Source: Bilabrum cf. latius
Lineage: Eukaryota
Reading direction: 5' to 3'
DNA: 64,000 bases
Assembly (NCBI GenBank): GCA_965178125.1
Contig: OZ237760.1
Location: 62,001 to 126,000 of the forward strand
Shown here: one piece after another, positions 1 through 49,969 of the stretch
Numbering within the stretch: the stretch's first letter is position 1
Layout of the letters: every line of letters starts with the position of its first letter
Notes under the pieces: model-generated
What the model was told of the DNA's origin: nothing
The model's input: the letters and a program-made list of their open reading frames with translations, nothing else
The model's database searches: none
Made by a program: the position numbers and the translations under genes

Positions 1-3000
1 CGTCCATGGCGCCCAGCATCTTGCCCTGCCCCGGCCCCAGGCGAGAAGACACCTCGGTGGCGCGCCGCTCGGCCTCCCGCAGCAGCTGGGACGGCCGCTT
101 GCCCACGGCGGCCACAGCCTGCAGCCGCAGCGGGCCCCCGAGGGTGGGCGTGTCGTCCGTGGTGCGAGCCACGCCGTCCGTCCCCAGCCCCATGCGCGTG
201 AGCATCTCCTCGTCCAGCAGCGCGGGATCGCTGGGCAGGTTCTCGTCCACCCGGTCCAGCCACTCGGCCTCCTCCAGGTCCTTCTCGGTGAGCTGCACGT
301 CGCCGGCGGCGGCCCCGCGGAGCCTCCTGGCCAGCGCAAGCTGCCTGGCGGCCACGACCTGCTGCCACTGCTCCCTCACCTGAGCCTCGACCTCGTCCTT
401 GGCCTCGGCCTCTTCCAACACGGACGTGTCCACCTCGGGGGGCGGCTGTCCCCTCCGGATGCGGTCCGCGTAGTCCTCCGCCCCGCCCGCGCCTCCGAGC
501 ATCTCCTCCCGGATGCCCGAGTCACCCGTTTGCTCGGCGAGCCCGCTGATGGCGTGCCACTCCCGCATCTGCCTAGTGGGGTCAAGCACCCAGTGGTACC
601 TCGCGCGCACCAGGTCGCCGAGGTCGCCCTCGCCCTCACCCCGCTGCAGACGCTGCCAAGACTCCTGACGGAACTTGCGCTCCACCGCACGCTCGGCCCT
701 CAGCTGCGGGATGTGTTCCCTGCGCCGGAGCACCAGCTCGTGGTCCGGGGCCAGAGGCCTGAGCAGCTAGTCTACCTCTTTGGCAGAAGCCCCCGGCAGC
801 CATGCCCTAGCCTTGGCTGCAGCAGCCTCCCTATAGGCCTCAACGCCACGCTCCGAGGCGTCCGCGGGCACGCGCTCCTCAGCGTCCTTCCGCCACAGCG
901 AGCCGCCAGAACCCAGCTGGTGCGCCGCTGCGGTGGGCCCTCCCTTCTGCATGAAATCGTCCCTGCCCATGAGACGGGCGTTAGCGCGGAACTCGGCCTG
1001 CATGGCTTCGCTGAGCGTGCGGGCCGAACCCTCGGCCACAAGCCGGTGGGTCACCTTGACCGCCACCTAGGGGTTGCTCTTGAGAGTCCGCAGCACGGAG
1101 CGCGCCCACGGTGTGTCCTCGGAGCGCAGTCGCTGGTGAATCTCATTAACGCTGCGGGCCTGCGGGACAGACACGCGCCACTTGTCCACGTCCGCGAATG
1201 ACTGGGTCACGCCGCGGGCCACCTGCAGCAGCGCGGGGTGCTCGGGCATCTTCAGGGCCTTGAGCAGCACCTCGGGATCGTGCACCAGGGCAGCCAGGTG
1301 CCCGTCCTGCAGGCCCTCGGCGCCCATCTCCAGCAGCTCCTCCGTAGCCTTGACGTGCCCCTCGAACGTCTCCGCCCCGGGGCCACGGAGGGCCCAGCGA
1401 ACGGGGTTTCTCGCCTCCGCCGAGCCCCCGGGGTCTACCTCGGGCTCGTCGGTGCCCGCGCCTCCCTCCCTCTGCTTCGCTCCTGCACGGCGCGCCCCCG
1501 CTCCGATGTCCGCAGGTGCAGGCGCAAAGCCCATCGCGGCCCGCTCTAGGTTTGCGTCGGAGCGGGAGGGCGTGAAGAGGTGCCCGGTGACGCGCTACAC
1601 GCCCAGCAGGGCCGCACCAGCCACAGGGTGCACGCCCATCGTGTTGGTGCCGATGCTGGCGTCGAAGCCGCGGTACCCGTGGGCACCGGCCGGCAGGGGC
1701 TCGGAGGGGTGCATGCCCAACCAGCCGCCCTCGTCAGGCCGCGCAGACGCCTTTGTGGACTCGAGCCCGAACAGAGTGGCGCTCGGGCCCCGCACCAGAG
1801 GTTTCTTTGCCCCCGACTGGCTCGTGCTGTACCAACCAGCGTCGAGGAGCAAGGGTGCCCTCCGGTTGTGCAGCGCGTCCAGAGCGTCCGCATACGCCCT
1901 CGCACGGGACCTCCGGGCCTCGTCGTGGACGTGGAGCTCGGGGTCCGTGTCCATGGCCGTGCTCAGCTGCGCGGCAGCCGGCATGTCCGCTGGAGCCTTC
2001 ACCACGAACTCGCCCGTGAATGCAAAGGAATCCTTTCCATTCGCTGCCATTGAACGCTACTTCGGCACGAACTTGCTCGTGCCGTCGCCCCCGCTACTGC
2101 CCTTGTGCGGCTCGTACTGGCCCGCAAGCGCCACGGCAGATTCGTGCGCGTCCTCCTGGGTGGCACCCTCGGCCGTGGTGGCCTCGTACTCGAGGCGCGC
2201 TGCCTCGGACACCGCATCCTGCACGGCTCCCTCCATGATCAACAGGGTTTCCCCCGCCGAGGCCGCAAGCTATGGATCCTCGATGCCCCAGGTGCTGACG
2301 GCCCCGTAGGGCGCGTGGAAACGGTCCGTGACGTTCTCAACCTGCGGGCCCTTGTATCCGTCCAACATCTGGCTGCGGGTCAGAGCGTCCATGAGCTCGC
2401 CCCGGCGCCAGCTCGAGTTGAGCCGGCCCGCTGGGTGCGTCATGTCGCCAGCCTCCTGCTCCACAGCGGGCAAGGCCATCTGGTCGTGGTCGTATGGCTC
2501 ATGCTTGAAGCGCGGTGTGGACGGCATGCCGGCGTGCAGCTCAGCCATCCTACCCGCGGGGGACAGCGTGAACGCACCCGGGCCCATCTGGCGCCCGCCC
2601 GTCTTGCGCGCCTCCTCCGCGCGCTTGGCGGCACCCATGCGGAACTCCTCGGCGTCCTCCAGCCGCACCCGCGTGCGCAGCTTCTCGGCCATGGACTCGC
2701 CCACGGCCAGGTCACCCTCCCCTGCATCGGAGTCTAGCACCTGCTGTGCACGGCCTTGCCTGACCAGCGCGGCCTGGTGCATGAGCTCCGAGTCGGGCAC
2801 CTCGGTGAGGCCCAGCTCCATGGTGCGGGCATCCCGTCCCTTGCGAGCCTTGGCCACCGCCCCCGCGTGCCTCCTGCGGAGAGTAGCCACCAGCGGGTCC
2901 TCCTTATGGTTCTTGGACCTGAACAGGCGCGGGTCCGAGCGGTCCCTGTGCGCCACCCCGTCCCAGCCCTCGTTGTCTCCCGAGAATCGGGCCGCAGCTT

Positions 3001-6000
3001 GCTCGAACGCCTACGGGCTGATGGACGCGGCCAGCTCCATCGCGGTCTGGCCGTGCTCCGAAAAGAGCTTCCGCTCCACCTCCCCCGAGAGCCCGTCCAT
3101 CAGCAAGGAGCTGTTTGCGTCCTCTACCTCCAGTGCACGAGCCGCCATCACGCGGGCCAGGGCGGCCTCAGACTGCGCACGCTCTTCCAAAACGGCAGCG
3201 GGAGCCTTGCCCTTCTTCTCGATGGCCGCGCCAGCCTCTGCCCGCGCCCTGCCCACCGCCTCCAGCGCTGACTTGGCATCGTCGTGGGACGAGTGCAGTC
3301 CACGCACTACCGCTGCGGATGCAGCCACGATCTTGCCCTCGCGGTACGCCTGCTTGGCCCGGGCAGCGGCCAGCACAGCGGCTTGTGCCTCGTCTGCCTC
3401 CGGGTGCTCCGGCTTGACGCCCGAGCCGGCTAGCACCTGCTCAAGGCTCTCGCGCATCTCACGGGCGCGCGTGGGGACCGCGCTTCCCTCCTCCTCCGCG
3501 GCCGACAGACCCAACTGCGACTGCACCAGCCACGTCTGCGCGCGCCGGAGCACCGTCTTGGGCAACCTCGTCCCCGGGGGAGCCGCCCCCAGCAGCACGC
3601 GCACGCCCTCCCGCGTCTCCTCGTCCCGCTTCACGGCGCGCTGGAGCCAGTGACCACGGCCGGCGTGCTCGGCAGACCGCGCCTCCTCTTCGGCGGCTGC
3701 CACTCGGAAGCAGTCCAGCATTGACAGGCCGTTGCTCGACAGCGCCCTCAATTCGGTGGCGCGGGCCCTCAGCCGCTCCTCAAGCAGCAGCACCACCTTC
3801 TTCGAATCTGTCAAGGACTTGCCGAGGACGGCTTCCCTTCGGCTGGCGGCTTCCTTGATCGACTGCTTCGCTTCTTCGCTCAAGCCCTCGCCCAGCATGT
3901 CCAGACGGGCCGCGGCCTCCCCGGGGCTGGACCCGGGCCCAACCTCGAGGTCAATCTGGCTGGGATCCTCAAGGGCTACCCGCCGGGCGACATCCAGCTC
4001 GGAGGGCTCATTGAGGCACAGCTCCAGGGCCGCGTCCACCTCTTGGACGCTCGGAGCGCCCCGGGCATCCAGGTGCGACAGCGTCTGCTGCGCCTTTGTT
4101 CCCTTGGGCACCAGCTCCAGCCCACTGGCCCTCTCCTGCTCCAAGGCCTCCCCCGCGCGCACCTCCGTCCGCATTGCGAGCTCCTCGGTCAGGCCCTCCC
4201 GCGAGTAAGCAGCCTCTATGGACGAGTCACGGGCTTTGTGGGGCGGGCGGCCCGCCACTGCGGCATCTACAGCACGCTTTCCGGCCTCCGCATCGCTGGG
4301 CTTGCTCTGTGAGGCAGCGTCAGCTACATTGCCCTTGGCACTGGAGAGCAGTTTCTTCTCGGCCTCCTCGGTCGCAGCCACCGCCGTTGCAGCCGCGATC
4401 TCATCCACAGTAGGGAGTCCCTCGGGCTCCTTGGCCAGCACCTCGGAGGCGTCGGGCAGGCCCACGATGCCCTCCTTGGCGGCGACTGCCTCCGATGTGG
4501 CGCTCTTGTGGAGAGCCCTCGCGGCGGGCTCTGGCTCCATGGGCTCCGGCCCGTCGCGCACCCCAAGGGGCTGCACGCCGCCGGGTCCCTGCGCGCGCTC
4601 CCTCTTGGCATCGGCCATAAGCACGTGCAGCGGCCTAGTCGCGTCTTTCTGCGCCACGATGCGCCGTAGCAGGTGGTACGCCCTCATCCTGGCCTGGTCC
4701 TTGGACAGGCGAGCCTCCACCGCCTCCATCGAGACGTCTTCGCTGGCGTCTGCCACGACGGACTTCTCCGATGCAAAGGCCTCCGTCGACTGGAGCAAGC
4801 TGCCCGTCAGCTCTTCGGTCGTCTCGGGCAGCAGGAGCCGTCCCGCTTCCAGGAGAGCCTGCCGCCTCGCAGATCCGCGCGGCACTCCCATCTGGTCCAA
4901 GGTGTGCTGCAACTGCTGCTCCTCGAAGCGATCCAGCGCATCGACGTCGGGGCCCCCCATTGACAAAGAGTTGTTGGCGGCCTTGGCCACGCTGCTAGGG
5001 AGCTCGGGGGCTTGCATTCCGTTGCTGAGGTCGGGCCGGCTGCCTCGTAGATGCGCGGTACACTCTTCCACTGCCTCTTGTTGCATGCGGCTGAGATATT
5101 CGTCCCATGCCGAGTTCGCCGCTTCCTCGGCCTCCTTCGCCTTGGCACTGGGGGATGCGCCCTGCTCGCTCTCCAGCACCGCCTTGCGGGCGACTTCCGC
5201 CGCCTCTTGCGCCCCAACGATCCACTCCTCGTACGACTCCACCACAGATCGGATGGAGATGTTGAGCGCACGCTGCACGTCGGAAGGAGTGGCAGCTCGC
5301 TGGATGGGCACGCCAAACCGAGTGGTCCACCCGAGCGGCCGCTTCCATGGGGACAGCATCTCAACCCGCTCAGGGCTCAGCTTAGAGCTAGCCTGTGCCC
5401 GAGCACCTGCTGCAGTGCTTGCGCTCTGCTCCGCCGCGGCACTTACCTCGGCTCGGAGCTCGGGTACAGCCGTCGAGTCGCCGTCGAGCACTCTTCGCAC
5501 TGCAGCACTGACGTGGCTCGAGTCCAGCACAGCCGAATCACCCACGTTCTGTGTCGGTAGCTTGCTGGTATTGCCACCGCGCTCATCGGCCAGCGCCGAC
5601 CCGTCCGATCTGTCCCCAGGCAGCACCCTGCGTACTACGGCCTGCGCCACCGCCCTAGGGTGGATGCCCAGGTGCTTGAGTAGGTGTGGCAGGTGACTGG
5701 ACTTGCTCATGGCCTCTGTCACGGTAGCCATGGCGCGAGCCCGTACCCAATCCTCCGTGGCGCGCGCCACGGCGGCAGCCGACAGGTGCGCCGCGGCGTC
5801 TTCGGCCCTACCCCGTGCCGCGCTCTCAGCCGCAGCTGCATCGGCCGCCACCTTAGCCACAGAGGCATAGTCGGCAGTCGCGTCAACGTCGCTGCCCCCC
5901 TGCCGGATCACCTCGGCGGCCTCCTTGATCCCCTCCGCCATCGAGGCAGCCGAAGGAGACTCGCCATGCTTCTCCGCGATCTTGCCCAACCGCTCCCGGA

Positions 6001-9000
6001 CCACCTCCCGCTTGGCCTCCTGCACCTTGACGAAGTCCGCGGCGGACTCGGGACTGGGCATGAGCCCTGTGGCGATGGCGGCCCCACGAGCCGCCTCACC
6101 TCCGTCTCCTGCCATCTCGAGCCTCTCCTCTGCTCGCAAGGCGGCATCCGCCCTCTTCTGCGCACGGGCGAGCGCCTCCAGCTCCTGCAAAGTGCCCATG
6201 GGCCCGCCCACGGCGCCGCCGCTCATCCACCAGTGCCTGCCCATCTGTGCCGACACGACGCCATCGCGGCCCTCGCTCACTCCGGCAGGCCGTGCCCCTA
6301 GCCCCCTAGAGATCTCGGCCATCTCGGTGCGGGCCGAGGGCACGGTCTCTCTGCCCCGCCGTGGGCCCAGGCCATCGGGCAGCTGCATGCCTCGGTCCAG
6401 GTCGGGCATGGCTTCAAAGAGAGGCACCTCGTCCACATCCTCGTCAAAGCCTTGGGTAGAGACCCAGCCAGGCTTACGGTAGGCACTAAGATCGATGGCA
6501 TGCAGCGAAGAGGGGTCGAGCTCCTTGAGCCTGTGCGGGTTGGGCACTTTGTCAAGCTGTTTCTCCTTACGGATCATTTTCCCTTGCCTTTGGGAAGAGA
6601 CCGCGCCGAGGAAATCCTACCCCACGGGCCTCTTTTCCTTCATGCTGGCTGCAAGGGTGCGGGCATCGTTGATGGCGATGTTCGCGAACGAGTCCCCAGC
6701 AGGCCCCACAGTCGCCAACACGGGCGAGGCTCCCGGGTGCACGGCATGCAGCAGCCGGCCCCCTCGATCCAGGCCTGACATGGCTCGTAGGGACTCCACA
6801 AGCTAAGCATACCCTCTCGCGGACTCGTGCGCGTTGAGAGCTGCCCGGGCCTCCACTCGGGCGGCGGCCTCCCCTTCCTGCCCCGCGATTGCCAGGGCCG
6901 CCTCCATTGCCTCCTCGGCAGTGCGAGCCATCTCCTCTGCCCTCTGAGCGACAGCGGCAACGGTGCTTGACCCGTTATCGCCAGGAGTCGTGAGTGAGGG
7001 GCCCAGCTCAGGCACATCCAGGCCCTTGGACTCGGCCTGTGCCGAAGCAGCCTTGGCCGAGCCTGCCACTGCCTCTCCCAGCCAGCTGGCGGCCGCATCC
7101 ACGACTCTCTCGAAGGCACTGACCTCTCGCTGCCCGCCCAGTATGATACGCCTGCGGAACTCGCTGGCCTTGCGCACGGAGTGCACCATAAGCTTCTGCA
7201 CCACGTCGTCCTCCCCCTTGAGCATGGCATTCTGCACGGCACCCTTGAGCGCGGGTTCACCCCTGAGTCGGGCCATCCTTAGCTTCTCCTGGACCTCTTC
7301 CTCGTCCTTCCCGCCCCGCGCATACCAAGATGGCTCTGATGGCACGAATGGGTCCATGTGACGCAGCCTCACCACGCCATCGTGCTTAATGCCGCCAGCT
7401 GCGCATTCGTACGACAGATCAGCTCCGCGAGCCTCCACACGTGCTGCCTACTCGCCGGGGGCCGCACCGCCTTCGGAAGCTCTGGCAGGCACGCTGCTGG
7501 CGAGCACTTCGTTCGCGATACCAGCCCCTCCCGAGGCAGTTGGCTCCACCAGCATAATGCCTCGTTTGGTAGCTCGTGTGTTCCTTGCCATGTGCTGCAG
7601 CGCGATGGGGCCTCTCCGCAAGCCGCCGCTCTTGGCCTCCATCGCTGCATCCGTGGATGCTGTCCTCAACGCGTTGATCTCATCAAGCATGCCCATTCTG
7701 TGCACCTCATTCCCAGGCTGCCTGCCCGACGGCAGCGTGATGTTCTGCTCCTTCATGGCGCGGGCCGTCCGATCGAATGCATCCACATCGTCGGCATATA
7801 CCTTGGCGATGGCCAGCCCGCGCGTCATGACGTCCTCCTGCTGGACGCTGTCGGGCACAGGCAGCGAGGGCGAGGCCACGGGGTCAACCATCGGGTCCAC
7901 TCCACCAGGCACCAGCATGGCGGCCATGCGGTCCGCATCCGACCTGTCCGCGAGGTAGTTCTCCTTTAGCACCGCCTCTGCCACCTCTGCGGCAGTGCGG
8001 TCGTGCAAAGAGGGAAGGTGGGCGGGGTGCAGCGTGACACCCTCGCGGTCCGCCTCCTCGAGCAGCTCACGAGCCTTCGTGCTAGCGGCCTTGGTATCGC
8101 TCTTGGCAAAAATCTGCGTGGCCTGCATGGACGGGAATCCGTTGGGACCAGGGGCGCCAATCCTTCCGCCGTCAAGTCGAGCGACGTGTCCCCGGGCGTC
8201 ACCGGCTAGGCCAGGGTCCATCCCACCGCGCTTCTCCACCTCGAGGGCTGTGAGACGCCTGGAGAGAGCGGCGCGCTGGGCAGTGCGCTTGGCTCGGTCC
8301 ATGAATCTCCTCCTCTTGGCGGCGTCGTAGTGGTTCCGCTTCTCGGTGGGTAGCGGCCGCAGGGGGGCGTGCAGCTTGTAGAACCAGAGCATGTCCGCCC
8401 TGTCGGACCAGCGGCCCTGCTCCACGAGGTAATCGATCGAGGCGAGCTCCTCTCGGCTGTCGGGGTCGAGAGACCTGGCCTTGAGCTTGTCGTAGTTGAG
8501 ACCAAGCGAGGTGCCGTACAGGCTGGCCTCCTTCTCGCCCAGCCCGGTCACTGCGTCGAGAGCGGTAGGACCGTCCACCGCGGCACCAAGGGCGGCCTTG
8601 TCGAGCTTGATGTTCTTCGTGGACACCATATCGTGGCCCGCCAGCTCCAACGGGTAGTCCGCAAACCTGTCCCGACCCATGGGGGGCGTCAGCCTGCCGA
8701 GCGCCGCCCTTTGTGGCACGCCGCTGACCTGCGCCCAGGCAGCGGGAAGCGCCACTAGGGTCTCCGGGTTGGGCCCGCCCCACTGGGCTTCTGTGCCGGG
8801 CAGGGTGTTGCCTCCGCCCTCGGGGCCCTGGATCAGGTTGAGACTCGCGAGGTACGGGGCATCGTCGGGCCCGCCCGTCGTCATTGCCTCGGCCGCCTGC
8901 AGCTGCTCAATGTCCACCCTCTGCCTCTTGTACCTCGCCTCGAGGTCTGCCTCGCCCAAGTCGTTGAACTCGCGGTGGTCAGCGGCCTCCAGGTCTGCAT

Positions 9001-12000
9001 CCACAGCGGGACCGCCCTCTAGAATGGAGCGCGCGGCGCCATCCCCGGGCAGCACCGGCGCATCAAACCCACCGGCCAGGTCGCCCTCCAGCACCGAGGC
9101 CAGCGCGGCCTTGTCAGCCGCCCCTTTCTCCACGGCAGCCTCGAGGGCCTCTTGCGCCGAAATGCGCCTAGCTGCGGCCCGGCGATGCGCCCACACCTCG
9201 TCCCTGCCAGTCTCCTGCCTCCAACGCGCCCGGAGCCACATTCGCAGGTAGCTAGAGGCACCTTCCGCCGTGAGGCCGTCAGGACCGGCGAGTGGCCCGC
9301 GAACGTTAGGCTGGCTGCCCACGCTTCCATCCTCTGCAACGTGCTCCGCCAGAGGGGTGCCCGCGAGCGTGCCGCCAGCCACCTCCACGGGCAGCCTGGC
9401 GAACGCGAGCAGCGCATCGTCCGGCGCGCCCGCCGCGGACTGGTTTGCAGATGCAGCGGCCTCTTCGGCTAGCTGCGGCGAGCCGAACGCCGAGGCAAGG
9501 CTGGCGTAGTCGGGGCGGGCCTGCCTGGCCTTGGCCTCAATCGTGGACTCTATCACGCCGTGGTCCGTCGGGTTGATCGTCTCTGAAGAGAGCCCGTCGC
9601 CCAGGAAGAGCTCGCCAAACCCAGGACGGACCCACCCGATGCCCGGGCCTCCCCACACCATCGGCAGGGTGGCAGCGTTCTTCGGATCCAGCACCACGTT
9701 GGACGTGTCCGGGGGCGGCACAGGCGCGGCAGCCTGCTGCACCTGGTGGTTCACCAGGTCAACCACAAGCCTCTGCCGCTCCTGCCCGTCCAAGGGGACG
9801 TGCTCGTCGATCGCTTCCTGCAGGTCTTCCTGCCCCTCCTCGCCGACCATCCGACTCCGGAGGCCGACCCCCTCCCCGCCCAGCAGTGACACCCCGTCCC
9901 CACCAGCCTCAGCCAGCGATGGACCCTCCGAGTCGGACAGGGCGGCCTCCTCCACGTCCGACTGCGAGACCGAGGACGCGCCAGACTCGGATGACGTCGC
10001 CTCGGCATCCACAGCTGCACTAGATGACTCGGCAGGCGCAGCCGCGGCATCGCCACTGCTCTCGCCCTCCCCAGCGACCACCTCGGCACTCTCACCGTCC
10101 ACCTCGGCTTTCTCTCCAGCCAGCTCGGGCGGCAGCTCCAGGGTGACGCTGGCGTCCTCCATGGCGGCAGCTCGCTTCTGGCCCGCCCCCGACTGCGGCA
10201 TGGCCGCCTTTACCTGCTCCCTGGGCACCTCACCTAGCTCAAACACGTGGTCCAAACCACCGGCGCTGTCCAATCCAGCGGGGCCCGCAAGGTCCGCAGC
10301 CTTCTGCAGCATGATGTCGATCCCCTCAAGCGCCTGGGCAGGCTCCTTGCCCTCTCTTGCGTACCGTTCGATGACCGCCGGGTCCTCAATGTCCGTTTTG
10401 ATGCCGTCCGGCATGCGGGCCATGCCCAGATTGAACACGGGGTCCACAGTGCCAGGCTGCCAGTACGGATTGTTGCTCTTGGCCGGCCCGTAGTGGGGGC
10501 GCGGGCCTGGCACGTTCTCGGCACCGCCGTTCCGCGTGTACGCCAGCCAGTCGCCCCACGCCGCTCCCGGGTTGTAGCCCGCAGGCTGGCCCATTTGGAA
10601 CTGGGAGTTGAGGTAGAAATCACCCATGCCGCCCATGGGTCCGTCCCCCCCGTCGCCCAAGGCATGCCCCGTCTGGATGGCACCGTAGAGGTCCTCAGAC
10701 ACGCCCATGATGGCCTGTCCCCATCCCGACTCGAACATGGCGTCCTCACTTCTGTCGGCCACCACGTCGCCGATCCATGTCGGCTGCAGGTGGGGCCTGT
10801 CCAGCATCTCCCCGGCAGTTTCGATCATTTCCGTTTCCAGTTCCATGTCAGCGGACCGCCCCGAAGCAACGGCCTCCTCATCGTGGGCTCCTGACAGCCG
10901 CACGAGCAGCTCGTCTGCCTCCTCCAGCAGCAGCTCCTGTGCCATCTCGGCGTCCTGCGCGCTCTGCACCGCCGCCTCCCGCTGCAGCCGCAGCTCCTCC
11001 GACAGCTCCACGTCTGCAGGGTCCATCGCAGCGTCGGGCTGTGTAGGTGTCTCTCCGTCCCTGACCCGAATCTCACGCATGGACTCCCCCAGAGGCAGCA
11101 GGTCCGCCTTGCCCCCGCTGAGGTTGAGGGCACGGAGGCGCTCCTTGGCTCGGCGAGTTGCCACGGCCTCCCTAGCCTCCAGATGCCTCCCAAGGGAGAT
11201 GTCCTTCAGCGCGCCCCTGGCCTTGGCAGACTTGCTCGCGAGGTCCTTGGCCATGCGCAGTGCGTCCGACTCGCTTAGCTCTTCGCCGGCACTCTTGAAG
11301 GCGGCGCGCAGGCGGGCGGCCTCTGCTTGCACCCGGTCCCCATTGAAGCCTACCGTGGCGTCGCCGGCGGCACCCTTCGCTGCCTCAGACCCGCTGGCAG
11401 AATCCGCTCCGAAATCCCTGCGCTCATCCGGTGCGTCCAGCTCGCTGTCTTCCACCCCAAGCTCCTCCTGTACCCTGGCCAGCTCCGCGTGCTCGTTGTC
11501 TCTCTCGATCCGCTCGAAGACGTTGTTGGGTCCGTCGTAGTTCTCATCGTCGTGCGGCACCCTGCCTTGCTCCACCAGCTCGTCAAACACGTCAAACTCC
11601 ACCAGCTCCTGCACCACGGCATCAGACAGCCTCGCTGCCTCCTCCACGGCGCGCTGCTGTGCCACGCTGCGCTGAGCCTGCAGAGCGAACGCGGGCACGC
11701 CATGCAGCCGCGCTACCGCCAGCAGCACGGCCCGCTGCACAATCTGCGCGACAAACACGGGGGCACCCACAGGAGAGTCCACGAGCTATTCGAACCTGCG
11801 GGGGGCGTTGGAGCGCTGGGCACAGTCGTCCGCCTCCGCCAGGGTCAGGCTGCCGTGCGGCCACGACTGCCGCACGCCCTGCCGCACCGCATCCGCCACC
11901 CGGGTGAGCGCAGGGGCACCGCCTTCCCGCGCCACCGGGTCCTTGGAGGCCCTCGGGGGCGCGATACCCAGCGTGTCGTAGGCCTCGAGCAGCACGCCCT

Positions 12001-14797
12001 CCGGCCCAAGGTCTGCCTTGCCCGTGAGCCCCTCCTCCGGACCAGGCGCGTCCCGCTGGCCGCGGCGAGCACGGAAGGCTGCTCCCGGCGCGTCAGGCGA
12101 GGTTAGGTCCTCCTGCATGCCACCGGCGGGGCCCCGCCCACGGATGGCGCGCCACCGGTTGTACGCGCACCGCCCGCCCTGGTCGCCGAGCCTGGCCTCC
12201 CAGTCCCTTGGCAGCGGCTACCTGAAGGCGCCCTGCTCTGCAAGCACGTCCCGCCAGTAGCGAGGGTCCCTCCGCCGGGCCGGGATGTCGATCCAGCGCC
12301 TGCGCACGGCAGCTGTCTCCCCGTGCGCCTCCCCCACGGGCTCACGCGGGGCCATGGGGTCTTCAGGATCGGTGGCCGGTTCAGCCGGCTTCTTGCCGGC
12401 CTTCTGAGCCTCGGCTGCGCGGGCCGTGCGCTCCCTCCAGTACGACTTGGCTTGCTGTACCGCGCTGGTGGGAGGCTTGAGCTCCGACCCTCCGCCCCTC
12501 TTCGGGATGTAGGCGTCCGACACGCGCAGCACGGGGTCGCCCTTGCCCGGGTTCCCGCCGAAGACTCGCTCGATGCTAGCCAGCTGCGCGACAGTTTCGT
12601 CGCTGGGCCGGGATGGGTGCGCCCCCTCTGTGCGCGCCATGCCGTGCGCGAGGGCGCCCAGCGCGTTGCCCAGCCAGTCACGGTCCACCGTGTGTGGCGG
12701 CACGTCGAGGTCCCTGCCCAGCACTGTCTCCTGCTCGTGGAAGTGCATGAAGTTGCCCGCGACCTCCGCGTGCTGGTCTTCGTTGTCCCACAGCTCCATG
12801 GACCCGAGAACGTCCTTGCCCTGCAGATGGTCGCCCGCGGCCTCCGCGTCCTCCACATCACTCTCAGCGCCCTCGTCCACAGCATCCTGCGAGGCGGACG
12901 GGGCCTCGGGGGCATCCGCGTCCATAGCCTCGGCGGCGATTGCGCTTGCCACGTCAGAGCCCTCGTGCTCGAACACCGGAGCAGGTACACCCTGTACCCC
13001 CGTCCCATGAAGCAGCACGCTACCGCCCTCAGACATGTGCACGCCCTCCCCGTCGGCCAGCCCGCCGCCCCCCGCAAGCGACTCGTTCGCCTGCAACTCG
13101 CGCGCGCGCATGACCCTCTCGTCCTCCGACTCGCCCTCCACCGAATCCATGGTGGCCTTGCCGGTGGCGATCAGGTTGGCAATGTCGGGGCGGCCTGCCT
13201 TGAGCACCCTGTAGAAGGCGTTCAGCTGCAGGTACCTCTCCGTCTGCCCCGCGTCTGCGTCTTCGGCCATGCGCTCGGCGTAGAAATGGTACTTCTCCGA
13301 GGGGTGCCTCTTGCGCATGCGGTCCAGCTCGGCCTAGTACACGGGGTCTGCCTCCATGGCATGGTGCAGCAGCGGCACGTTGGACCGCTCGCCCGCCATG
13401 CGCAGCAGGTCCTCCTCGACTAGCCGGTCAGACGTGCGGTACGGGGTCAGCCCGCCCCAGTACGCCACGTCGGGATCCACCACTCTACCAGTCAGCGCGG
13501 CGAACATGCCCACGCCCCCGCGCACCCTGCCCAGGTGGTACGAGTTGCCGCCCGTCAGGGTCAGCCCGGCCGTCACCTCGGGGTAGATCACCCGCGTGCT
13601 GTCCGTAGAGTACCCGAACCGCGCGTTCTGCATGAGGGCCGCCCCGCTGCCCGCGGTGATGCCGTGACCCACCACTGCCAGCGGCTTGGTGTACGTGTGC
13701 GCCAGCCAGTGGAGCTGGTACTCCTCCCTCAGCAGCTCCAGCGCCCTTGCCCTCCTCGTGGGGTTCCGGCGGGCGGTCTCCCACATGTGCGCGACGTCGC
13801 TGCCGCCGCAGAATTGCTTCAGGTCTCTGCCTCGCACCACGACTAGTTTGACGGCCTCATTGGCCTCCAGCTGCGAGAGGTCATGGGAAATTCGGAATGT
13901 GATTGGGGGGGGGGTGGGCAGGACAAGGACACAGAGGAGCAGGCGCGTCAATTGGAACCACTGTCAGCAGCAGTACTAGAGACAGCAGCATCAGCCACGG
14001 TTCATTCATGTATACGTGATCATCAGGCTAGGTTTGCTCCTTGTGTCAACCTCTCTCACCTCTAGCAGCTTTGCAATCAGGTTCCGCACGGTGCCGGCAT
14101 CCAGCACGCCGCGGCCCAGGGGGGAGCCGGATGCCTCCGTGCCCGTCAGGTGCACGATCCTGGCTCCCTACGCGGCCTCTGTGAAGATCCCGGTGGGAGT
14201 GCGCATGGGCTTGGCCCCAGCCCCGACCCTCTTGGTCTCTAGGACCCTGTCAAGCAACCTGCGGGCCTTGATCGAGGCCATGTCCGGGCGCACGAAGTCC
14301 TGCTTGGCGCCGCCGCCCATTCCTTGCGGGAAAAACATAGGGGGCTGTTTGCTACTGTGCGCCTTCCATACTCTGCTTGGGCTCGATGTGAAGCCGCTCT
14401 GCCACCGCCTAGCTTGTCCGTGGTACCCTGCCCGGAGGTGCTGCTGCGAGGCCACGCGCCTTACCGCACTCGCCCAGCGGCCGCTCGAAATGTGCATTCG
14501 GCGCTCGTTTGACGAAGAGGCGGTACTGGGCTAAGACTGCACGGCCTGCTGCCTTGTTCTCCCAATGGGGGCAGCTGGGGCTGCAACAGCAGGACCTGAC
14601 ATGGATGCTGATGCGCCTGCTCGAGTGCTGGAAGCGCGGACATTTGCGCTGTCCCTAGCCACAACTGGTGGAACTGGTATGAATTGGCCCGTCGGTCGAG
14701 AGCTCTTCCCTGCCTGCGTCCTAGATTTCACACGACTAGACAGGCGGTTCACCGTCAAGGCGGCCTGTCGCCTTGCAGCTCCAAACACCCTGTTCAT
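1..14797 (-). CDS. Giant mitochondrial 3-hydroxyisobutyryl-CoA hydrolase (HIBCH)/mitoribosomal mS47-like protein, >4,860 aa, 3' end outside window; exons 14060..14797 and <1..13870
   Basis: Fourteen ORF-track pieces lie in one frame, separated only by TAG (14531, 14168, 13334, 12218, 11786, 7448, 6803, 6617, 3011, 2270, 2057, 1595, 1067, 767) plus one intron. Arg/Ser-rich N-terminus (MNRVFGAARRQ) looks like a mitochondrial presequence. Crotonase motifs: VKLVVVRG..FCGGSD, EEYQLHWLAHTYTKP, YPEVTAG, GVGMFAALTG. HIBCH-like C-terminal helices SVNEIHQRL..VKVTHRLVAEG..TLSEAMQAEFR..DF lie at ~950-1200. Confidence 0.8.
13871..14059 (-). other. Spliceosomal intron (189 nt) in the HIBCH-like gene
   Basis: Donor GAG|GTGAGA, acceptor ctctcgcag|CTG. 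Contains an in-frame TGA. Splicing gives KLLE-LEANEAVK, continuous with the crotonase motif. Confidence 0.8.
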
Positions 14798-15269
14798 GAC
14801 AGTATGCTGAATTTACTGGTCACGTTGCACTTATTTTGAACTAAAATTGGCAGTAGTAGCGATGTATGCCCAAATGACTCCGTCTGTGGGATATACTGGC
14901 ACAGTTGAAGACGGGACGACAGCACGGCTTCTCCGTCGGCTCAGGGGCACAAATAAAACCAACTTTCTGGATATATGCACCAACTATAGGAATAAAAGCC
15001 ACTAATATGTAGCCTTATAACCAACAAAACTGGTTTCAAGGACCAGTATCACTGTGTTTGTACCGGGTTTGAGCGGATGGCCCATCCAATCATATTCTGA
15101 TATAAATTGTTTTGTACAGTGTCAAATCTGGTTCCATGAAGCCGGCACAGCTACGAACGCAAATCGTGAAGTCACACGATCCTTGAGCATCCTATCATAG
15201 CGACACGTCTTGAACCTTGACAACTAAAATTATTTTGACCCTTTAACGCCGTATTGGTGCCGTTTGATC
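14798..15269. promoter_or_regulatory. AT-rich divergent intergenic region (putative bidirectional promoter)
   Basis: Sharp GC drop between two divergently oriented ATGs (14797 minus, 15270 plus). No specific motif identified. Confidence 0.45.
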
Positions 15270-16652
15270 ATGTAGAATAGGTGGTGGACCCTTGGAGCTG
15301 CACTCGTAGCTTGCGGGACCAGTTTAGCAGCCTGTCCGAAAACTTCGAGCTGCAGAACGTGTCTTGCAGACCCCGAGTGTGGCATGTGCCGCATGCCAAC
15401 TTCTAAGGCGGTTGAGGTGGGCTTACTTGGGCCGCTAGACTCGGCCGGGCTTTCAGACGATGCGCACGGCTCCAATATTCTCGGTATCGAGTGGACGGAC
15501 GGCTTATTTCGTTTCCGTTCCAAGCGCCGTGGGTCTGTTTTCACGGAGGAGGGAGATACGAGCAGCCGCAGCGACCTGGGTCGACGTCGCGCTGTGCAGG
15601 CAGGTGCCATCCTGCTTGATTCAGTTGCTCATGATGAGGTATCAAAAAGCAGCACCCCAGCAGCGTCTTTCTTGCAAACTAGTGGGTCTGATGTTCCGTG
15701 GGATGATAAAACCAAGTAGGCCGCAGTATGCATGTCGCTTTCTCAGGCAATGGATGAGGAATTATGCGCAGATGCTCGCACTAGCGTAGAAGACTGTGAG
15801 GCCCTTCCGGCTGCGGACTCGCTCAGGGGCTCGGCTCGCCTGATCATGCTGGTCGTATGGCTCTTGATCTCCAGTATGGTTGGAGTAGCGGCATTGGTTG
15901 GAATCGGCGCGGCGTGCTTGTAGCCCAAGGCCGCGGCAGCGAGCGAGCAGCGCGTCGAGCAGCTGCCCACAAGCGAGCATGCGTCCCAGGGACCGCTCGT
16001 TTCGCAGCACGGGCCCGTTGCGGCCGGATCGGATCCGCCCAGCAAGCCTCCGAGAGGCTCTGGCTGGAACAGCTTCGCCCCACCGTGTCTGTGCGTGTTC
16101 TGCTGGCAGGACTCAGGACTCGCCAGCAGTCCAGTGCAGCAGCCTGGGGAAGGGGCAGCGGCAGGGGCAGGGGAGGTCAGCGCGGGGGATGGGGCGGACT
16201 CGCTCGGCAGGAGGCACAGGGCCGACCACGAAGGCACGCCTGGCTGTTTGGGCGGGTGCCTAGCGGACGGATCGGACGCGGATTCGCAGGCGGGCGCTGA
16301 GGCATGGGTGGCTGCTCGCGGGGCGGCCGGGCTGCGGCGGCGGGCCATGGATGCTGCCGGTGGAGGTGATGCTAGGGCGGCTGGCGAGCACGGCACGGAG
16401 CCCGCATCTGCGCCCAGTAGCGGTGCGTCTTCGAGGCATGGCGAGTGGCACCCGGCCCCGGGGAGGGGGTCCAGGGCCGTGTGGGAGCAGGCGGCGGCGA
16501 CAGTGTACGGCCCGGGAGAAGAGGAGCCGCACCGCCAGACCTAGCAGCCACAGCGGTTGGGCAGGCGCACCGGTCGAGCGACAGGGGGGCAGTTGCCGGG
16601 CAGGAGACGAAGGCAGAGGAGAGGGTGGGGATCGGAGGTCGTGTCTGGGTGA
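15270..16652 (+). CDS. Hypothetical type I membrane protein with N-terminal PSI-like Cys motif (460 aa with TAG=Gln)
   Basis: ATG-TAG start, then signal-like NRWWTLGAALVACGTSLAA and a PSI-like C..SCRTCLADPECGMC. TM segment LIMLVVWLLISSMVGVAALVGIGAACL. TAGs at 15273, 15717, 15921, 16542 join ORFs 15384, 15732 and 16095. Ends TGA 16650-16652. Confidence 0.6.
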
Positions 16653-16773
16653 TTGATATGCGCAACATGGTGTTCATGCTCATGCTTTGCACGTAATACT
16701 ACCTGTTGTTGCATCCGGATCGTGTGCGTCTAGCAATCATAGATCCACCACAAGTGGTAAATTGCTCGCAGCA

Positions 16774-18207
16774 TTAAGGCTCCTCCCGCTCTGTGCCTCC
16801 GCCTGATCCAGACCCAGCACCAGAGCCAGGTGCAGACTCCTGCCTCGGTCTCACTTCCCACACCCGAATCACGCCATCGTCCCCTGCAGATGCGATCTGC
16901 ATGGCATGCGGGCCACTCGGCCCATCACCCTCTCCGTCCCCGCCCACAGCCGCGCCCGCCGCAGAGGACCTCCCTGGCCTCCACCTCACGCAGTTCACGT
17001 CGCCGGCATGCGCGTCCTCCACCACCGCCAGGGACACAAATCCGATCGAGCTGCTGTCCGCACCACTCCCTGCCTCCTCGTCCTCTGCCTTCCTGTCCGT
17101 GTCGCGCTTGGGCACCGACCTGGCGCTCCCCTCCGCAGCCGGTGAGGGCACCACCTAGACCAGCCGGATCGAGTCGGAGTCATCACCCAGCGCCAGCACA
17201 TCCATCCCGCCGGGTCGGGCCCAGTCTGCAGAGTACACCACGTCCACATCGGCCTGGACCCACCTGCCCGCCCTCGACCAGCCCCTCGCACGGGCCCCGG
17301 GCTCGCTGGACCGGACCACTTGCTTCTCTTTCTCTTTTGAGAGGGTAGAATCCTGCCCGCCATCAGGGCCGCCCCTTTGTTGCAGCACAGAAACGCCCCC
17401 GGCCCCGTCGCACACGGCAAGCCGCTGACCCAGTGCCCCAGGCGCCCTCCCCAGCGAGCCTGGCCCCCCACCCTCCGACCCATCCCGTCTGGGCTCCACG
17501 GCGCATTCCCACGCCGTGCTGGGTGTCCCGATCGTTTCGACGTGCATCCAGTCGTCCATCCGCTCCGCCCACACCATGGCACTGTCGTCATATCCGCAGC
17601 TCACGACGTACTCATCGTCCTCCCCACTCCCCACCCAAGCCACGCTCTTCACGTCGCCCGTGTGCTTCGGGAGGACGGAGATGCACTCGAACTCGCCCTC
17701 GGCCTCGCCCTCCCAGATCCAGACCGTCTTGTCTCTGCCTGAAGTCGCCAGGTACCGGCCGGAGGGGCTGAAGGCCACGCCTTTCACCTCGTTCTCGTGC
17801 CCCTCCAGCTGGGAGAGCATCTCGAAATCCAAGGAGGTTCCGGAAGAGCGGCGCTCCCATACGACAGCCGATCCATCAAATGAAGACCCCGCGAGCAATT
17901 TCCCGCATGGCGACCAAGCAACTCGTCTCACGGTGCGCGTAGGGCCGTCATCCAGGCTGCACACTAGCTTCCACGCCGGTTGGGCGCTGCCCCCAGATTG
18001 ATCCCGGTCCCCGGGCTACGGTCCCTACCAAATTCGAACAACCTTGTCCTAACCGCACGATGCCAACAATTGCCCATCCGGCGACCATGCGACGCACCAC
18101 GCGCGGTCACCGTGACCATCCAATGTGGCCACCTCCTTCGCCTCCCAAGGCAATGCTGCCGGTGTCTCCGGCGTGCTGAGACCAGGCTCTGACACTGCAG
18201 CACACAT
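16774..18207 (-). CDS. CIAO1: Cytosolic Fe-S assembly WD40 protein CIAO1/Cia1 (477 aa)
   Basis: Motifs GHGDRAWCVAWSPDG, RTVRRVAWSPCG..SFD, LEGHENEVKGVAFS..RDKTVWIWE, FECISVL..HTGDVK, AHAGDVNCVRW. In-frame TAGs at 18049, 18025, 18016, 17155. Ends TAA. Confidence 0.92.
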
Positions 18208-18365
18208 TTCTCTGTTGGTAGAGCCAAGATTTTGTGTGAGCGAGCAATTTCGCGTCCACGTGCCGCTCGTCGTCACACGACCGCAGCCAACACGAACAGC
18301 AACTGCGCAAGCATTCCTCTAGCTGGCGCATCACAACCAGTGAACTGCCAGCAAACCAGTCCTGG

Positions 18366-20972
18366 ATGTAGTTATTTTCAAGTCGTCCCTCGGGAGTCAA
18401 TGCTGGCAGGAAGCGGCCCAGAGAACCAGAAGAGGAGGATGGACGGAGAACAGCCATGCGAACCTAGTCTCGTGGAGACGCCTTGCAGAGCCAGTCCATG
18501 GATGCAGCGGAAGCAGGGCGCTTGGAGCATGCAATGAAGCATGCGACATCATTTGAGTAGCTGTAGCTAGTTCCTTAGCTGGTGCATGCGTGCAGGAAAC
18601 TCGGGATTTCGAAGCCGACAGAGGTGCAGCGGCAGTGCATTCCGGCTGCACTTCAGCGCTGCCATGTAGTAGCAGGAGCTCCCACTGGCTCGGGCAAGAC
18701 CGCATCATTTGCTCTCCCAATCTTGCAAGGCCTCTCGCGAGAGCCCTGTCCCGGGTATGCCCTGATCCTCGAGCCGGGCCGCGAGCTGGCGAGGCAGGTG
18801 GGCGAGCAGTTCACCGCACTCGGCGCCTCCATCGGAATCCGAGTCTGCGTCGTGGTAGGGGGTGGAGACATGACCAAGCAAGCAGCCGAGCTGGGCCGCC
18901 GCCCGCACGTGATCGTGGCCACGCCCGGCCGGCTCGCCGACCTCCTAGGCACGAGCGGCAGCGTCAAGGGCTCCCGCATCCTGGGCCGGGCCAAGTTCCT
19001 CGTCCTCGACGAGGCCGATCGGCTGCTGACCCCGTCCTTCGCCGCCGACGTGCGGCCCATTCTGGAGGCCCTCCCCAGCGCAGCCACGGACCAGGACCCG
19101 GAATCGGAAGGCCTCCAGACGATGCTGTACACGGCCACGCTCACGAGGGGCATGAAGGCGGCGCTCAGGGCGGCGGCGCTGGCACCCGAGGCAGTGGAGG
19201 AGCAGGCAAGGAAAGCGGCGGCGGCATCGGCAGCCGGGCGGCTGGCCCAGGCCCAGGCCGAGGCCCAGGGGCAGACGGGGGAGGGTATCGAGGGAGATGT
19301 GGTCCCACCTGCCCTGCCTTCTGCTGCTGGCTCAGAGACCGGGGGCACTGCAGCATCATCTTCCTCGGCCTCATCCTCCTCCTCCTCCTCATCCTCGTCC
19401 TCCGCGGCTGCCTCCAGTGGCCTTACCCAGCGGGCAGCCTCTCGACTGGCGTCTCTCCAGTCCGCCGCTGCCCTCCTCCGCAGAGTGGGACTGGGGTGGG
19501 CCCCGGAGAGGAGGTGGAAGGGGCCCCTCCTGGGCACGGGGTCGGGATCGGGCGGGGGAACAGGGGTGGGCAGTCGCGCGTCAGAATCCTCTGCCAGCAG
19601 CGCGGTGGGTGGCCTCCCCGTGTACACGTACGTGCATTAGGGCATCAAAGATGGCAGGCTGGTGCTGCCGTGGGAGGACGGGGCCGGGGCTGCCGGAGCT
19701 GTGGCAGGGGGTGCATCGTCATCGAGCGGGGCGCAGGAGGGAGGTGGCGACGGGGCGCTCTGGTCCATGCTCTCGGGCGAGACCTCGGGGGATGATCGCG
19801 CCAGTGGGGACCTGCTCGCCTCCAGGTCGCTGACACAGTGCTACCACCTGACCCCCTCCGCTGCCAAGCTCTCCGCGCTGGTGCTGCTGCTGCAGGTGGC
19901 GGGACCCGTGCCGGTCGACGATCGACTGAAAGAGGAGGCGGGGCAATCTGCCGTGGCGGCCGGCAAGGCAAGGGCGAGGCGGAGGCGGGAGCAGGATGAC
20001 GACGCGTAGAGCGAAAGCGATAGTGAGAGTGAGAGTGGGAGTGGGAGCGGTGAAGGCAGTGATAGCGACAGCAACAGTGATAACGATAGCGAGGATGACA
20101 GCGACTCAGAAGGGGATGAAGAGTAGCCAAGCTAGTCGCGAGCATCGTCTGGGCCTGCAACAAAGGCTGAATCTGAAGAGGAATCCGATGGAGGCAGCAG
20201 TGACGATGACGGAAGCAGCAGCGATGAAAACGAAGACAAAGAAGACGATGACGGCGAAAGCAACAGCGACAGCGACTCTGACCGAGACGATCCCCAGCCC
20301 GGGGGTGCCGGGGAGGCCCCCGTGGCTCGCACCATCCGACCTGCAGACCAGGCCTCGGCCGACTCGCTCTCCTGCTGGACGGAGGAGGGGCTGCCCATCC
20401 GGAGTCGCTCCTGCCTCGTGTTCTGCGCCACTGTGGAGCAGTGCCAGCTGGTGGCCGAGACACTGGCCGAGCTGGGCTGGCTGGCGCTGCCGCTGCACTC
20501 GGCCCTCCCCCAGTTCCGCAGGGATCAGGCCCTGGTGCGGTTCCGGTCTGGCAGGGTGCCCATCTTGGTCGCAACTGACGTGGCGGCCCGCGGTTTGGAC
20601 ATCCCGGAGGTGGACCTGGTGGTCAATGTGGACTGTCCCCGGAACCCCGCCGACTATGTGCACCGGGTGGGCCGAACGGCCAGGGCGGGCCGCGGCGGGT
20701 GCGCGGTGACTCTGGTGACGGAGCGGGACGTGTCTCTGGTGCATGCAGTGGAGGAGGCGCTGGGCCACCGCCTTGCCAAGTGCATGTGGACGGACGGCGA
20801 ATGGGCCGAGTCCGCGGTGGCCGCTCGCATGAGCAAGGTGTCCAAGGCCAGTAGGGTGGCCCGGCTGCGCATCGCGGAGCACGGCTTCGAGGACAGGCTG
20901 AACCGGCACACGAGGAGGAAGCACGGGGCCAAGGGCAGGACAAAGCGCGCCATGGCGGCCGTCGGCAAGTGA
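18366..20972 (+). CDS. DDX49: DEAD-box RNA helicase DDX49/Dbp8 (868 aa) with long low-complexity insertions
   Basis: Q motif F..L.L...LVHAC..LG..KPTEVQ, APTGSGKT, PGRELA, TPGR, DEAD, TAT, ARGLD, HRVGRTAR; C-terminus resembles DDX49. Nine in-frame TAGs (18369, 18465, 18558, 18564, 18576, 19638, 20007, 20124, 20133). Ends TGA. Alternative start ATG 18498. Confidence 0.88.
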
Positions 20973-37354: not shown

Positions 37355-37798
37355 GATCAGTTTGCTACTGCTGACAAAGCGGCATGCAACAGTGGCTATA
37401 TTGACAAAAAGAAAGGCTATCGGTTCTGGGGCTCAAGAGGTGATCAGAACGACGGCAGTAGCGTGATGAATCCGCAAGATGCGTGCCTGCGCCAGCGATG
37501 CCTTCCGCGTGATCTTCTCACACACTTTGACATTGAGTGATAGCCTTGGTCAGCGCATTAATATCCCAAATTGTGCTAGTGCCGGTTTGAACAGTTGCCT
37601 GCGGGGAAGCCTCACGTTGTGTGCTTCCCAACCTGATGCTTCGGTCGCAAAGCCACACGGTGATGCATGTCGCAGGCCAACAAGTCCGAGGTCGCAGCTG
37701 TGCTGCCAAATGAATGCACAAGTTTGAACACGTACTCCCATTATTAATATATGTATCCTGCCATGCAATTGACGCACCAGCATCACCCGCATTCTTCA

Positions 37799-41816: not shown

Positions 41817-42010
41817 GCTGTTGTTTGGGCTCGCCGAAAGGTAGTTGCAGCAACAACGGTAGGCAAGCAAAAAATGAAACTCTGCTCGACGCCGCGCAAG
41901 TCTCTCTGCGGAACCACAATAGTGCCGGCCAGGAATCCAGGATCCTAACGACGCACCTGGGCCTCGTACTTGAGGACCCGTGAGGCTTAAGTGTTGACTA
42001 CAGCGTCATC

Positions 42011-46217: not shown

Positions 46218-46346
46218 GCGTTTCCATCAATTGTACCGAAGCTTGCTGCAAATGGAGTGGCGCCGCCGCGTGTGACGATGTGGCAGTCTGATGACCGATC
46301 CGCAGCCAGCTTGCAGCTTGCTACGGTGGCATATTAGCGCCGTGCC

Positions 46347-49739: not shown

Positions 49740-49969
49740 GGCCTCTTGAGTAGGCTCCTTCACGATCTGCCAGGTTTGTGGCCGGTCGCAACCCCGTTTC
49801 CACGATGTCTCCGGATCAGCCTCCCATTTTTCTCACAGCTGAACAAACCCACAAGCCGCAACATCTATCAATCTATAACACCACCCAGCTACTGTCCTGT
49901 CGGGATTCATATCCCCGCTTGTATTGAGCCCAACGGACTCTTGTTCCGACGCTTCGTGTTGCCGTCGCC

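Follow-up and report, generated by a model that had tools for sequence, protein, structure and literature searches.

The stretch of DNA analysed here, hereafter the window, comprises 64,000 nucleotides of Bilabrum cf. latius (GenBank assembly GCA_965178125.1, contig OZ237760.1, positions 62,001 to 126,000 of the forward strand) with a G+C content of 59-71%, and carries at its left end, on the minus strand, a giant gene whose predicted product contains a domain of the 3-hydroxyisobutyryl-CoA hydrolase (HIBCH) type split by an insertion of about 4,077 residues. Reading along the gene, a 5' untranslated leader (14798..15056) is followed by exon 1 (14060..14797; 246 codons), which supplies the start codon and a presequence-like N-terminus, by a phase 0 intron of 189 nt with GT..AG ends (13871..14059), and by exon 2 (4,623 codons), which leaves the window at its edge. 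Exon 2 encodes in turn the N-terminal half of a Pfam ECH_2 domain, the HIBCH-type crotonase fold (13400..13870; N half), the insertion that lies between the two ECH_2 matches (1169..13399), the C-terminal half of the domain, a helical lid (947..1168; C half), and the rest of the frame (2..946), in which the domain ends, as judged by eye, and gives way to a C-terminal extension that leaves the window. Within the insertion, the block best conserved in comparison with a relative corresponds to protein residues 601-1000 (11609..12808).

The gene occupies the minus-strand frame in which codon starts fall at positions equal to 1 mod 3. From 13963 down to 2 this frame is open for 4,654 codons, with 12 TAG but neither TGA nor TAA, and each of the other five frames holds 11-83 TGA across the same interval. 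G+C at codon positions 1, 2 and 3 is about 0.74, 0.50 and 0.80 in each 400-codon slice of the gene; because this coding periodicity is present in every slice of an open frame, the whole stretch is taken to be coding. Upstream of 13963 the frame continues through two further TAG codons to the ATG at 14797; between this ATG and the 5' ends of the RNA-like contigs described below (15036 in X1 and 15056 in X2) there is no other. In total the gene has 4,869 codons in the window, 14 in-frame TAG and no TGA or TAA, and its product is predicted to comprise at least 4,869 residues and at least 518 kDa, with a computed pI of 5.31 and a net charge of -157. A preliminary description, made from the DNA letters, had proposed one frame of more than 4,860 residues with ~12 kb of Ala/Glu/Gly-rich coding sequence between the domain halves; both proposals hold, the composition of the whole protein being 15.9% Ala, 9.5% Gly and 8.9% Glu. 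The same description had expected 14 fragments under the standard code, a figure that should read 15 pieces, given the 14 in-frame TAG.

Contigs from four sequencing runs (X1-X4) were compared with positions 1-20000 of the window. X4 acts as DNA, a single 62.8-kb contig passing through the whole compared region with the intron retained, and X1 and X2, which come from two separate studies, provide RNA-like contigs that both skip exactly 13871-14059, with GT..AG ends on the strand of the giant gene. One X1 contig (record 2; 4,958 nt) runs from 15036 to 14060, joined to 13870 through 9890; another (record 1; 11,765 nt) runs unbroken from 9884 to 1 and then for 1,881 nt past the first base of the window; and an X2 contig (record 7; 9,621 nt) begins at 7740, reaches 1 and carries the identical 1,881-nt continuation outside the window. 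Each ECH_2 half is physically joined in these contigs to 3.5-8.7 kb of insertion. The 189-nt intron is the only joint within the gene that has GT..AG ends and the support of two runs (X1 and X2); the contig table also lists a jump in a single X4 contig from 9158 to 17353 (side 24, ends GA..TC). Uncovered stretches in the RNA-like contigs (9885-9889, 15037-15157, 16683-16842 and others) were not counted as evidence. The same sequence of the locus occurs in contigs from three studies. We are dealing with a single nuclear gene with one intron and an mRNA of ~16.7 kb, and the middle of the gene stays in the transcript, as had been anticipated, the RNA-like contigs with two-run support dropping only 14059-13871.

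TAG is a sense codon in this genome, most likely for glutamine, and UGA is the stop codon; it is because TAG encodes an amino acid here that the gene splits into fragments under the standard code. Two of the in-frame TAG codons lie in exon 1 (14533 and 14170), ten in the insertion (13336, 12220, 11788, 7450, 6805, 6619, 3013, 2272, 2059 and 1597), one inside the C half (1069) and one in the rest of the frame (769), and on this reading TAG makes up 12 of the 188 Gln codons of the long frame. In-frame TAG also occurs in other open reading frames (ORFs) of the window, namely those of a second giant protein with FG-GAP repeats (25 TAG), a polo-like kinase, a DEAD-box helicase, Mpp10 and a PLD-like protein. 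All seven domain-bearing ORFs with a supported stop end at TGA, and an eighth was ended at a TAA sitting in a GTAAGT string that resembles a splice donor. The RNA-like contigs keep the TAGs of the giant gene unaltered, with no other letter at these positions, so RNA editing is not the explanation. Among the 14 TAG columns that align well with orthologues from relatives (at least 12 of 20 flanking residues identical), 9 pair with Gln and the remaining 5 with Ser, Glu, Lys, Asp and Arg; in the FG-GAP protein, self-BLAST gave consistent alignments at 2 of the 25 TAG positions, where 6 of the 7 aligned residues are Gln. A contig from a relative (L001, described below) uses TAG likewise, with 14 in frame in 1,963 codons. 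NCBI tables 15 and 6 are nuclear codes in which UAG is Gln, UAA being also reassigned in table 6 and not in table 15. The usage found here is like both in having TAG in frame in many genes and paired with Gln in orthologues, with TGA as the stop; there is no in-frame TAA in the 9,578 codons of the two giant ORFs and UAA may not be reassigned, but the window by itself cannot separate table 6 from table 15. No tRNA gene was found in the window.

The only Pfam family in the 4,654-residue ORF is ECH_2 (PF16113; curated cut-off 27.2 bits), with a whole-ORF score of 135.2 bits. Scanned alone, the N half (13897-13337) scores 110.2 bits (E 2e-31, profile positions 23-176); in the whole ORF its match spans profile positions 22-186 and ends near 13400, about eight residues at its N-terminal end being translated intron. 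The C half, scanned as a separate piece (1594-770), scores 38.1 bits (E 1.6e-9) for profile positions 225-303 at 1168-947. The halves are colinear and ~4,077 codons apart, profile positions 187-224 are unmatched, and the ~335 profile positions that make up a contiguous ECH_2 domain are matched in two separated parts. The preliminary description had foreseen both a HIBCH-type domain cut by ~4,000 residues and split hits in a profile search; the matches indeed lie at ~13897-13400 and 1168-947, each above the cut-off by itself. Compared with Protein Data Bank (PDB) sequences, the N half aligns with human HIBCH (3bpt; E 1.8e-17) as far as chain residue 204 and the C half from chain residue 242 onwards (E 2.6e-4). 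Because the alignments stop and resume at these points, sequence comparison places the break where a linker connects crotonase core and helical lid, at approximately human HIBCH residues 234 to 272.

Other PDB matches are to mitoribosomal relatives of HIBCH. The N half matches chains of the small-subunit protein mS47 (6yw5_88, 6xyw_BE, 9evs_f, 5mrc_88 and 8d8l_8) at E 1e-16 to 2.5e-11, and the C half finds its best PDB match in a 1,451-residue enoyl-CoA hydratase (ECH) protein of the Tetrahymena mitoribosome (6z1p_BI; E 4e-6). By eye, the last 36 residues of exon 1 resemble the strand and helix with which the crotonase fold opens, and a short stretch near 800-750 resembles the last ECH_2 helix, neither being reported by HMMER. 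Exon 1 alone gave no Pfam match and no PDB sequence match at E up to 1, and the C-terminal extension likewise gave no PDB sequence match at E up to 1. Both the crotonase core and the helical lid of HIBCH (human 3BPT) are recognisable in the giant protein; however, HIBCH is one contiguous domain of ~350-400 residues, whereas the giant protein has ~4,077 residues inside the domain and extensions at both its N- and C-termini.

The key residues of HIBCH are Glu120, Gly146, Glu169 and Asp177, according to PMC7982470. An ungapped alignment with 3bpt (chain index +30) puts Glu, Ser, Glu and Thr at these positions in the giant protein, and the relative represented by L001 has identical residues at all four, so that two of the four residues of an active HIBCH are replaced in both taxa (Gly146 by Ser and Asp177 by Thr). 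The loss of Asp177 in both taxa argues, at the level of sequence, for a non-catalytic domain. According to PMC7947838, the mS47 proteins of Arabidopsis and Trypanosoma are HIBCH-like without the substrate-binding site; these plant and trypanosome forms have lost substrate-site residues, as has the giant protein.

The fit between the two halves was modelled by complex prediction with three chains: the tail of exon 1, the N half and, as partner, residues 165-325 of P0010, a fragment from a relative that contains the orthologous C half. Scores of 0.80, 0.81 and 0.80 were obtained, against 0.01 for the best of three controls, on a scale whose mark is reached by 51 of 78 solved complexes and by 2 of 108 mismatched pairs; the score may owe something to solved HIBCH structures that the model has learnt, and the partner is the chain of a relative. 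The runs share at least 63% of their contacts, the partner has a predicted local distance difference test score (pLDDT) of at least 57, and the predicted interface sets N-half residues 98-138, around the former active site, against the lid helices. That the halves still pack into one HIBCH-like fold is supported by these models, short of a demonstration. The preliminary description had called for structure prediction of the joined halves; run as separate chains with the relative's C half, the prediction favours closure, tempered by the possible memory of the model.

The insertion was sought in other organisms by several routes. When 1,200 insertion residues (window 7451-11050) were run with HMMER in full against 1.84 billion representative proteins, only four matched, all unnamed fragments of the same gene in relatives and 60-96% identical. 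A first metagenome scan with all of exon 2 gave 13 pattern matches, none of which was confirmed, and a second scan (query P0006) led to contig L001 (9,946 nt, 62% G+C). The orthologue on L001 has the same start codon as the window gene and a basic N-terminus of low conservation, followed by a conserved N-terminal extension and an intron of 198 nt at the same codon position as that of the window, with the same GTGAGAGAG start; the N junction is also the same, and exon 2 runs off the contig end. At the other end, P0010 (325 residues, 74% identical) is unbroken from the tail of the insertion through the C half and has Gln at both window TAG positions in its span, including TAG 1069. The preliminary description had called for a search of related protists for the insertion; it is indeed present in these relatives, L001 spanning the N junction and P0010 the C junction, and the relatives' fragments together cover residues 1-2874 and 3907-4588 of the window protein.

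The L001 protein is 61% identical to the window protein over 1,774 aligned residues, with an uneven distribution. Counted per 100 residues, identity reaches 0.80-0.81 in the ECH N half; residues 601-1000 of the insertion show 0.73-0.84 (72-88% in 60-residue windows of this block), whereas the acidic linkers (501-600, 1001-1300 and 1501-1600) have only 0.28-0.45, which gives a layout of conserved blocks (70-88% identity) and linkers (13-45%). The conserved blocks are near neutral and the linkers strongly acidic. Nonsynonymous (dN) and synonymous (dS) divergence was estimated by the Nei-Gojobori method, and the values are rough, synonymous sites being near saturation: dN 0.13 and dS 1.76 in the ECH N half, dN 0.158 and dS 1.38 in block 601-1000, dN 0.23-0.27 and dS 1.6-1.9 in the other insertion blocks, and dN 0.44-0.59 in the linkers. 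Blocks of the insertion are as conserved as the enzyme-like half, and purifying selection is seen in the relatives.

Neither known families nor known structures are recognisable in the insertion. It matches no Pfam family at E up to 1 and no PDB sequence at E up to 1 (searched with two insertion ORFs and block alignment A1), it has no internal repeats detectable by self-BLAST, and it is not simple low-complexity sequence. A query of the ESM Atlas with the TAG-free ORF 7451-11785 gave no usable hit, and word-index searches, which are weak evidence, found no match for the N half among longer proteins or for exon 2 among proteins of 2,542-8,091 residues. To judge from these comparisons, the insertion of ~4,077 residues is known only from this lineage. 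Residues 947-965 were considered as a membrane span and not accepted, the segment, the sole one of its kind, having only borderline hydropathy (mean 1.78).

At the start of the protein, the N-terminus encoded by exon 1 is basic, rich in Arg, Ser and Ala, presequence-like and poorly conserved (counts in the first 100 residues are 16 for Arg+Lys, 2 for Asp+Glu, 22 for Ser+Thr and 18 for Ala), and residues ~120-210 form the conserved N-terminal extension. The N-terminus of L001 is similar in make-up despite the low conservation. The mS47 proteins of yeast (5MRC), Neurospora (6YW5) and Arabidopsis (6XYW) belong to the same family, and the giant protein adds to this kinship its presequence-like N-terminus; the known mS47 forms listed have 409-508 residues and are contiguous, whereas the giant protein is split and its association with a ribosome is putative. 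Tetrahymena 6Z1P chain BI is an enlarged member of the family, and according to PMC8998825 this ECH protein sits in a protein-rich ribosomal protuberance. Its ECH_2 parts, at residues 81-215 and 374-439, form a contiguous domain with the extra mass outside; in the giant protein the extra mass lies inside the domain and is about four times that of the Tetrahymena protein. Our search of the literature on mS47 with mitoribosome insertion, Chlamydomonas/Polytomella and Tetrahymena found no intradomain insertion in a HIBCH/mS47 protein. The largest relative found (1,451 residues) is enlarged outside the domain.

We propose the following reading of the locus. The single gene, UAG=Gln, the split domain, the conserved insertion and the degraded active site are well supported: ~4,077 lineage-specific residues separate the crotonase core of the domain from its C-terminal helical lid. 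The two halves would pack into one HIBCH-like fold, from the surface linker of which the insertion would leave as a giant excursion. The domain would no longer be a hydrolase, a loss that we infer because two of the four key residues are replaced, and its role would instead be structural, that of a clasp or an anchor. In the insertion, the work would be done by the conserved blocks, with variable acidic linkers between them, as parts of a large, probably mitochondrial scaffold, and the small subunit of the mitoribosome, where HIBCH paralogues serve as mS47, would be its leading address. Taken whole, as one UAG=Gln gene encoding a split, non-catalytic clasp and a large, probably mitochondrial scaffold, this reading seems to us fairly probable. 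The address is a separate matter: the mitoribosome is the leading candidate by analogy with mS47, and a tentative one.

Several points weigh against this reading. The protein is known here from nucleotide sequence alone, and its C-terminus lies beyond the edge of the window. The records of X1 and X2 are labelled only 'RNA?' (X1 'probably DNA'), and no single RNA-like contig spans the whole gene, the X1 pair abutting with five bases (9885-9889) uncovered. Glu120 and Glu169 are retained, leaving room for residual catalysis. An AlphaFold2 model of residues 590-1010 from a two-sequence alignment reached a mean pLDDT of 36.4 and a predicted template-modelling score (pTM) of 0.20, and a single-sequence AlphaFold model of window 3017-6616 a mean pLDDT of 42.2 and a pTM of 0.26; both consist of helix and coil, are uninformative and are too poor for a fold search. 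A probable mitochondrial location is argued only from the habit of the family and the composition of the N-terminus; the acidity of the whole protein lends no support to the mitoribosome idea, and nothing in the present data ties the protein to ribosomes. A literature search for mS47 and Chlamydomonas returned no green-algal mitoribosome structure paper, and the main text of the Polytomella mitoribosome paper contains none of the terms enoyl, hydrolase or crotonase.

Among the alternatives, a narrower form of the favoured reading holds that the giant protein is this organism's mS47, its clasp docked on the small subunit and its insertion forming an appendage of about half a megadalton. The matches of the N half to mS47 of yeast, Neurospora, Arabidopsis and other mitoribosomes (6yw5, 6xyw, 9evs, 5mrc and 9fia), the best PDB match of the C half, the loss of key substrate residues in common with plant and trypanosome mS47, and the existence of enlarged mS47 forms (1,451 and 716 residues) all speak for it, but the N-half scores fail to separate mS47 from true HIBCH (1.1e-16 for 6yw5, 1.8e-17 for 3bpt), the protein is acidic and its conserved blocks are near neutral rather than basic, and four pieces compared with PDB sequences, including all mitoribosome entries, gave no match at E up to 1. 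We regard this form as conceivable and doubtful; that the intradomain insertion of such an mS47 builds a new mitoribosomal appendage of this size is, by the same analogy, a shade less likely still. If instead the protein were a still-active 3-hydroxyisobutyryl-CoA hydrolase carrying a tolerated, largely disordered expansion of a kind common in this genome, the two retained glutamates, the predicted packing of the halves (0.80 against 0.01), the low-confidence helix-and-coil models of the insertion and the ~416-residue low-complexity spacer between the two domains of the DEAD-box helicase in the window would all be in keeping. Yet the replacements of Asp177 by Thr and of Gly146 by Ser are fixed in both taxa, large parts of the insertion are as slow to evolve as the enzyme-like half (dN 0.16, compared with 0.13), and the insertion has neither repeats nor the character of simple low-complexity sequence, which leaves an active hydrolase unlikely in our view.

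The block-and-linker layout could also be that of a polyprotein, a precursor cut at the variable acidic linkers, with ECH_2 halves that reassemble as separate chains. The halves are indeed predicted to associate as separate chains, and fragmented mitoribosomal proteins are described in green algae (PMC9576764); however, no cleavage motif or repeat was found (self-BLAST for repeats), and we consider a polyprotein improbable. Least probable of all, and hardly credible to us, is that there is no single product, TAG acting as a terminator, or the locus being misassembled or a decayed gene, and the ECH_2 pieces being unrelated remnants. The standard code does cut the frame up into 15 pieces, and the window, being devoid of tRNA genes, offers no suppressor, but 4,654 codons without TGA or TAA, TAG in other expressed genes alongside seven of seven supported stops at TGA, the pairing of TAG with Gln in orthologues, identical sequence in contigs of three studies, and both junctions together with purifying selection in relatives stand against separate products.

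Domain insertions usually consist of one small domain or a disordered loop. In the giant protein an enzyme fold of 350 residues appears to accommodate ~4,000 inserted residues that are themselves under purifying selection in at least two taxa, an extreme case in nature by which to gauge how widely a fold may be parted and yet close. Should the clasp dock on the mitoribosome, as its relatives do, it would mark a new route by which mitoribosomes gain mass; should it dock elsewhere, it would mark a mitochondrial megastructure not known until now. Were the protein an mS47, no ribosomal protein known to us would come near it in size, and the ribosome would have grown via insertion inside a recruited enzyme fold. 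The gene lies in 15 pieces under the standard code and the public protein entries of relatives are unnamed fragments; only when the UAG=Gln code is used do such proteins come to light.

Beside the giant gene, contigs from X1, X2 and X3 all start exactly at 15158, where X1 shows adapter letters, and the region 15158-16682, in which neither long ORF has a Pfam family, may be an unannotated short transcript. The X1 and X3 contigs share an odd 7795/17667 junction with 34 foreign letters between, and X3 has G>A at 9272 and 12948, each in one low-depth contig; the junction and the two sites may be assembly noise or allelic differences. Farther along, the window encodes a WD40 protein (16777-18330, minus strand), the DEAD-box helicase (18240-20969, plus strand), the PLD-like protein (44307-46226, minus strand), an aspartyl protease (49928-52201, plus strand) and Mpp10 (61912-63999, minus strand). 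In the helicase the DEAD and Helicase_C domains lie ~416 residues apart, the low-complexity spacer being rich in Ser, Ala, Gly and Asp, and three TAG fall within ten codons just upstream of the Q-motif region; it is a smaller case, in the same genome, of a conserved protein stretched by insertion. The polo-like kinase (37802-41314, minus strand) has a Pkinase domain and POLO boxes with a spacer of ~470 residues between them, rich in Ala, Ser and Gly, that contains all three of its TAG. The second giant ORF (22661-37432, minus strand; 4,924 codons, 25 TAG) encodes many FG-GAP repeats split by (Ser-Pro)n linkers, and its Cys-rich, hydrophobic C-terminal part suggests a surface or membrane protein. 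An ORF at 41984-44038 (plus strand; 685 codons) has no TAG and no Pfam family, and its nearest Atlas clusters (0.98, by protein-language-model features) are all bacterial, mostly Actinomycetota, one being tannase/feruloyl esterase-like; this ORF may be of bacterial origin.

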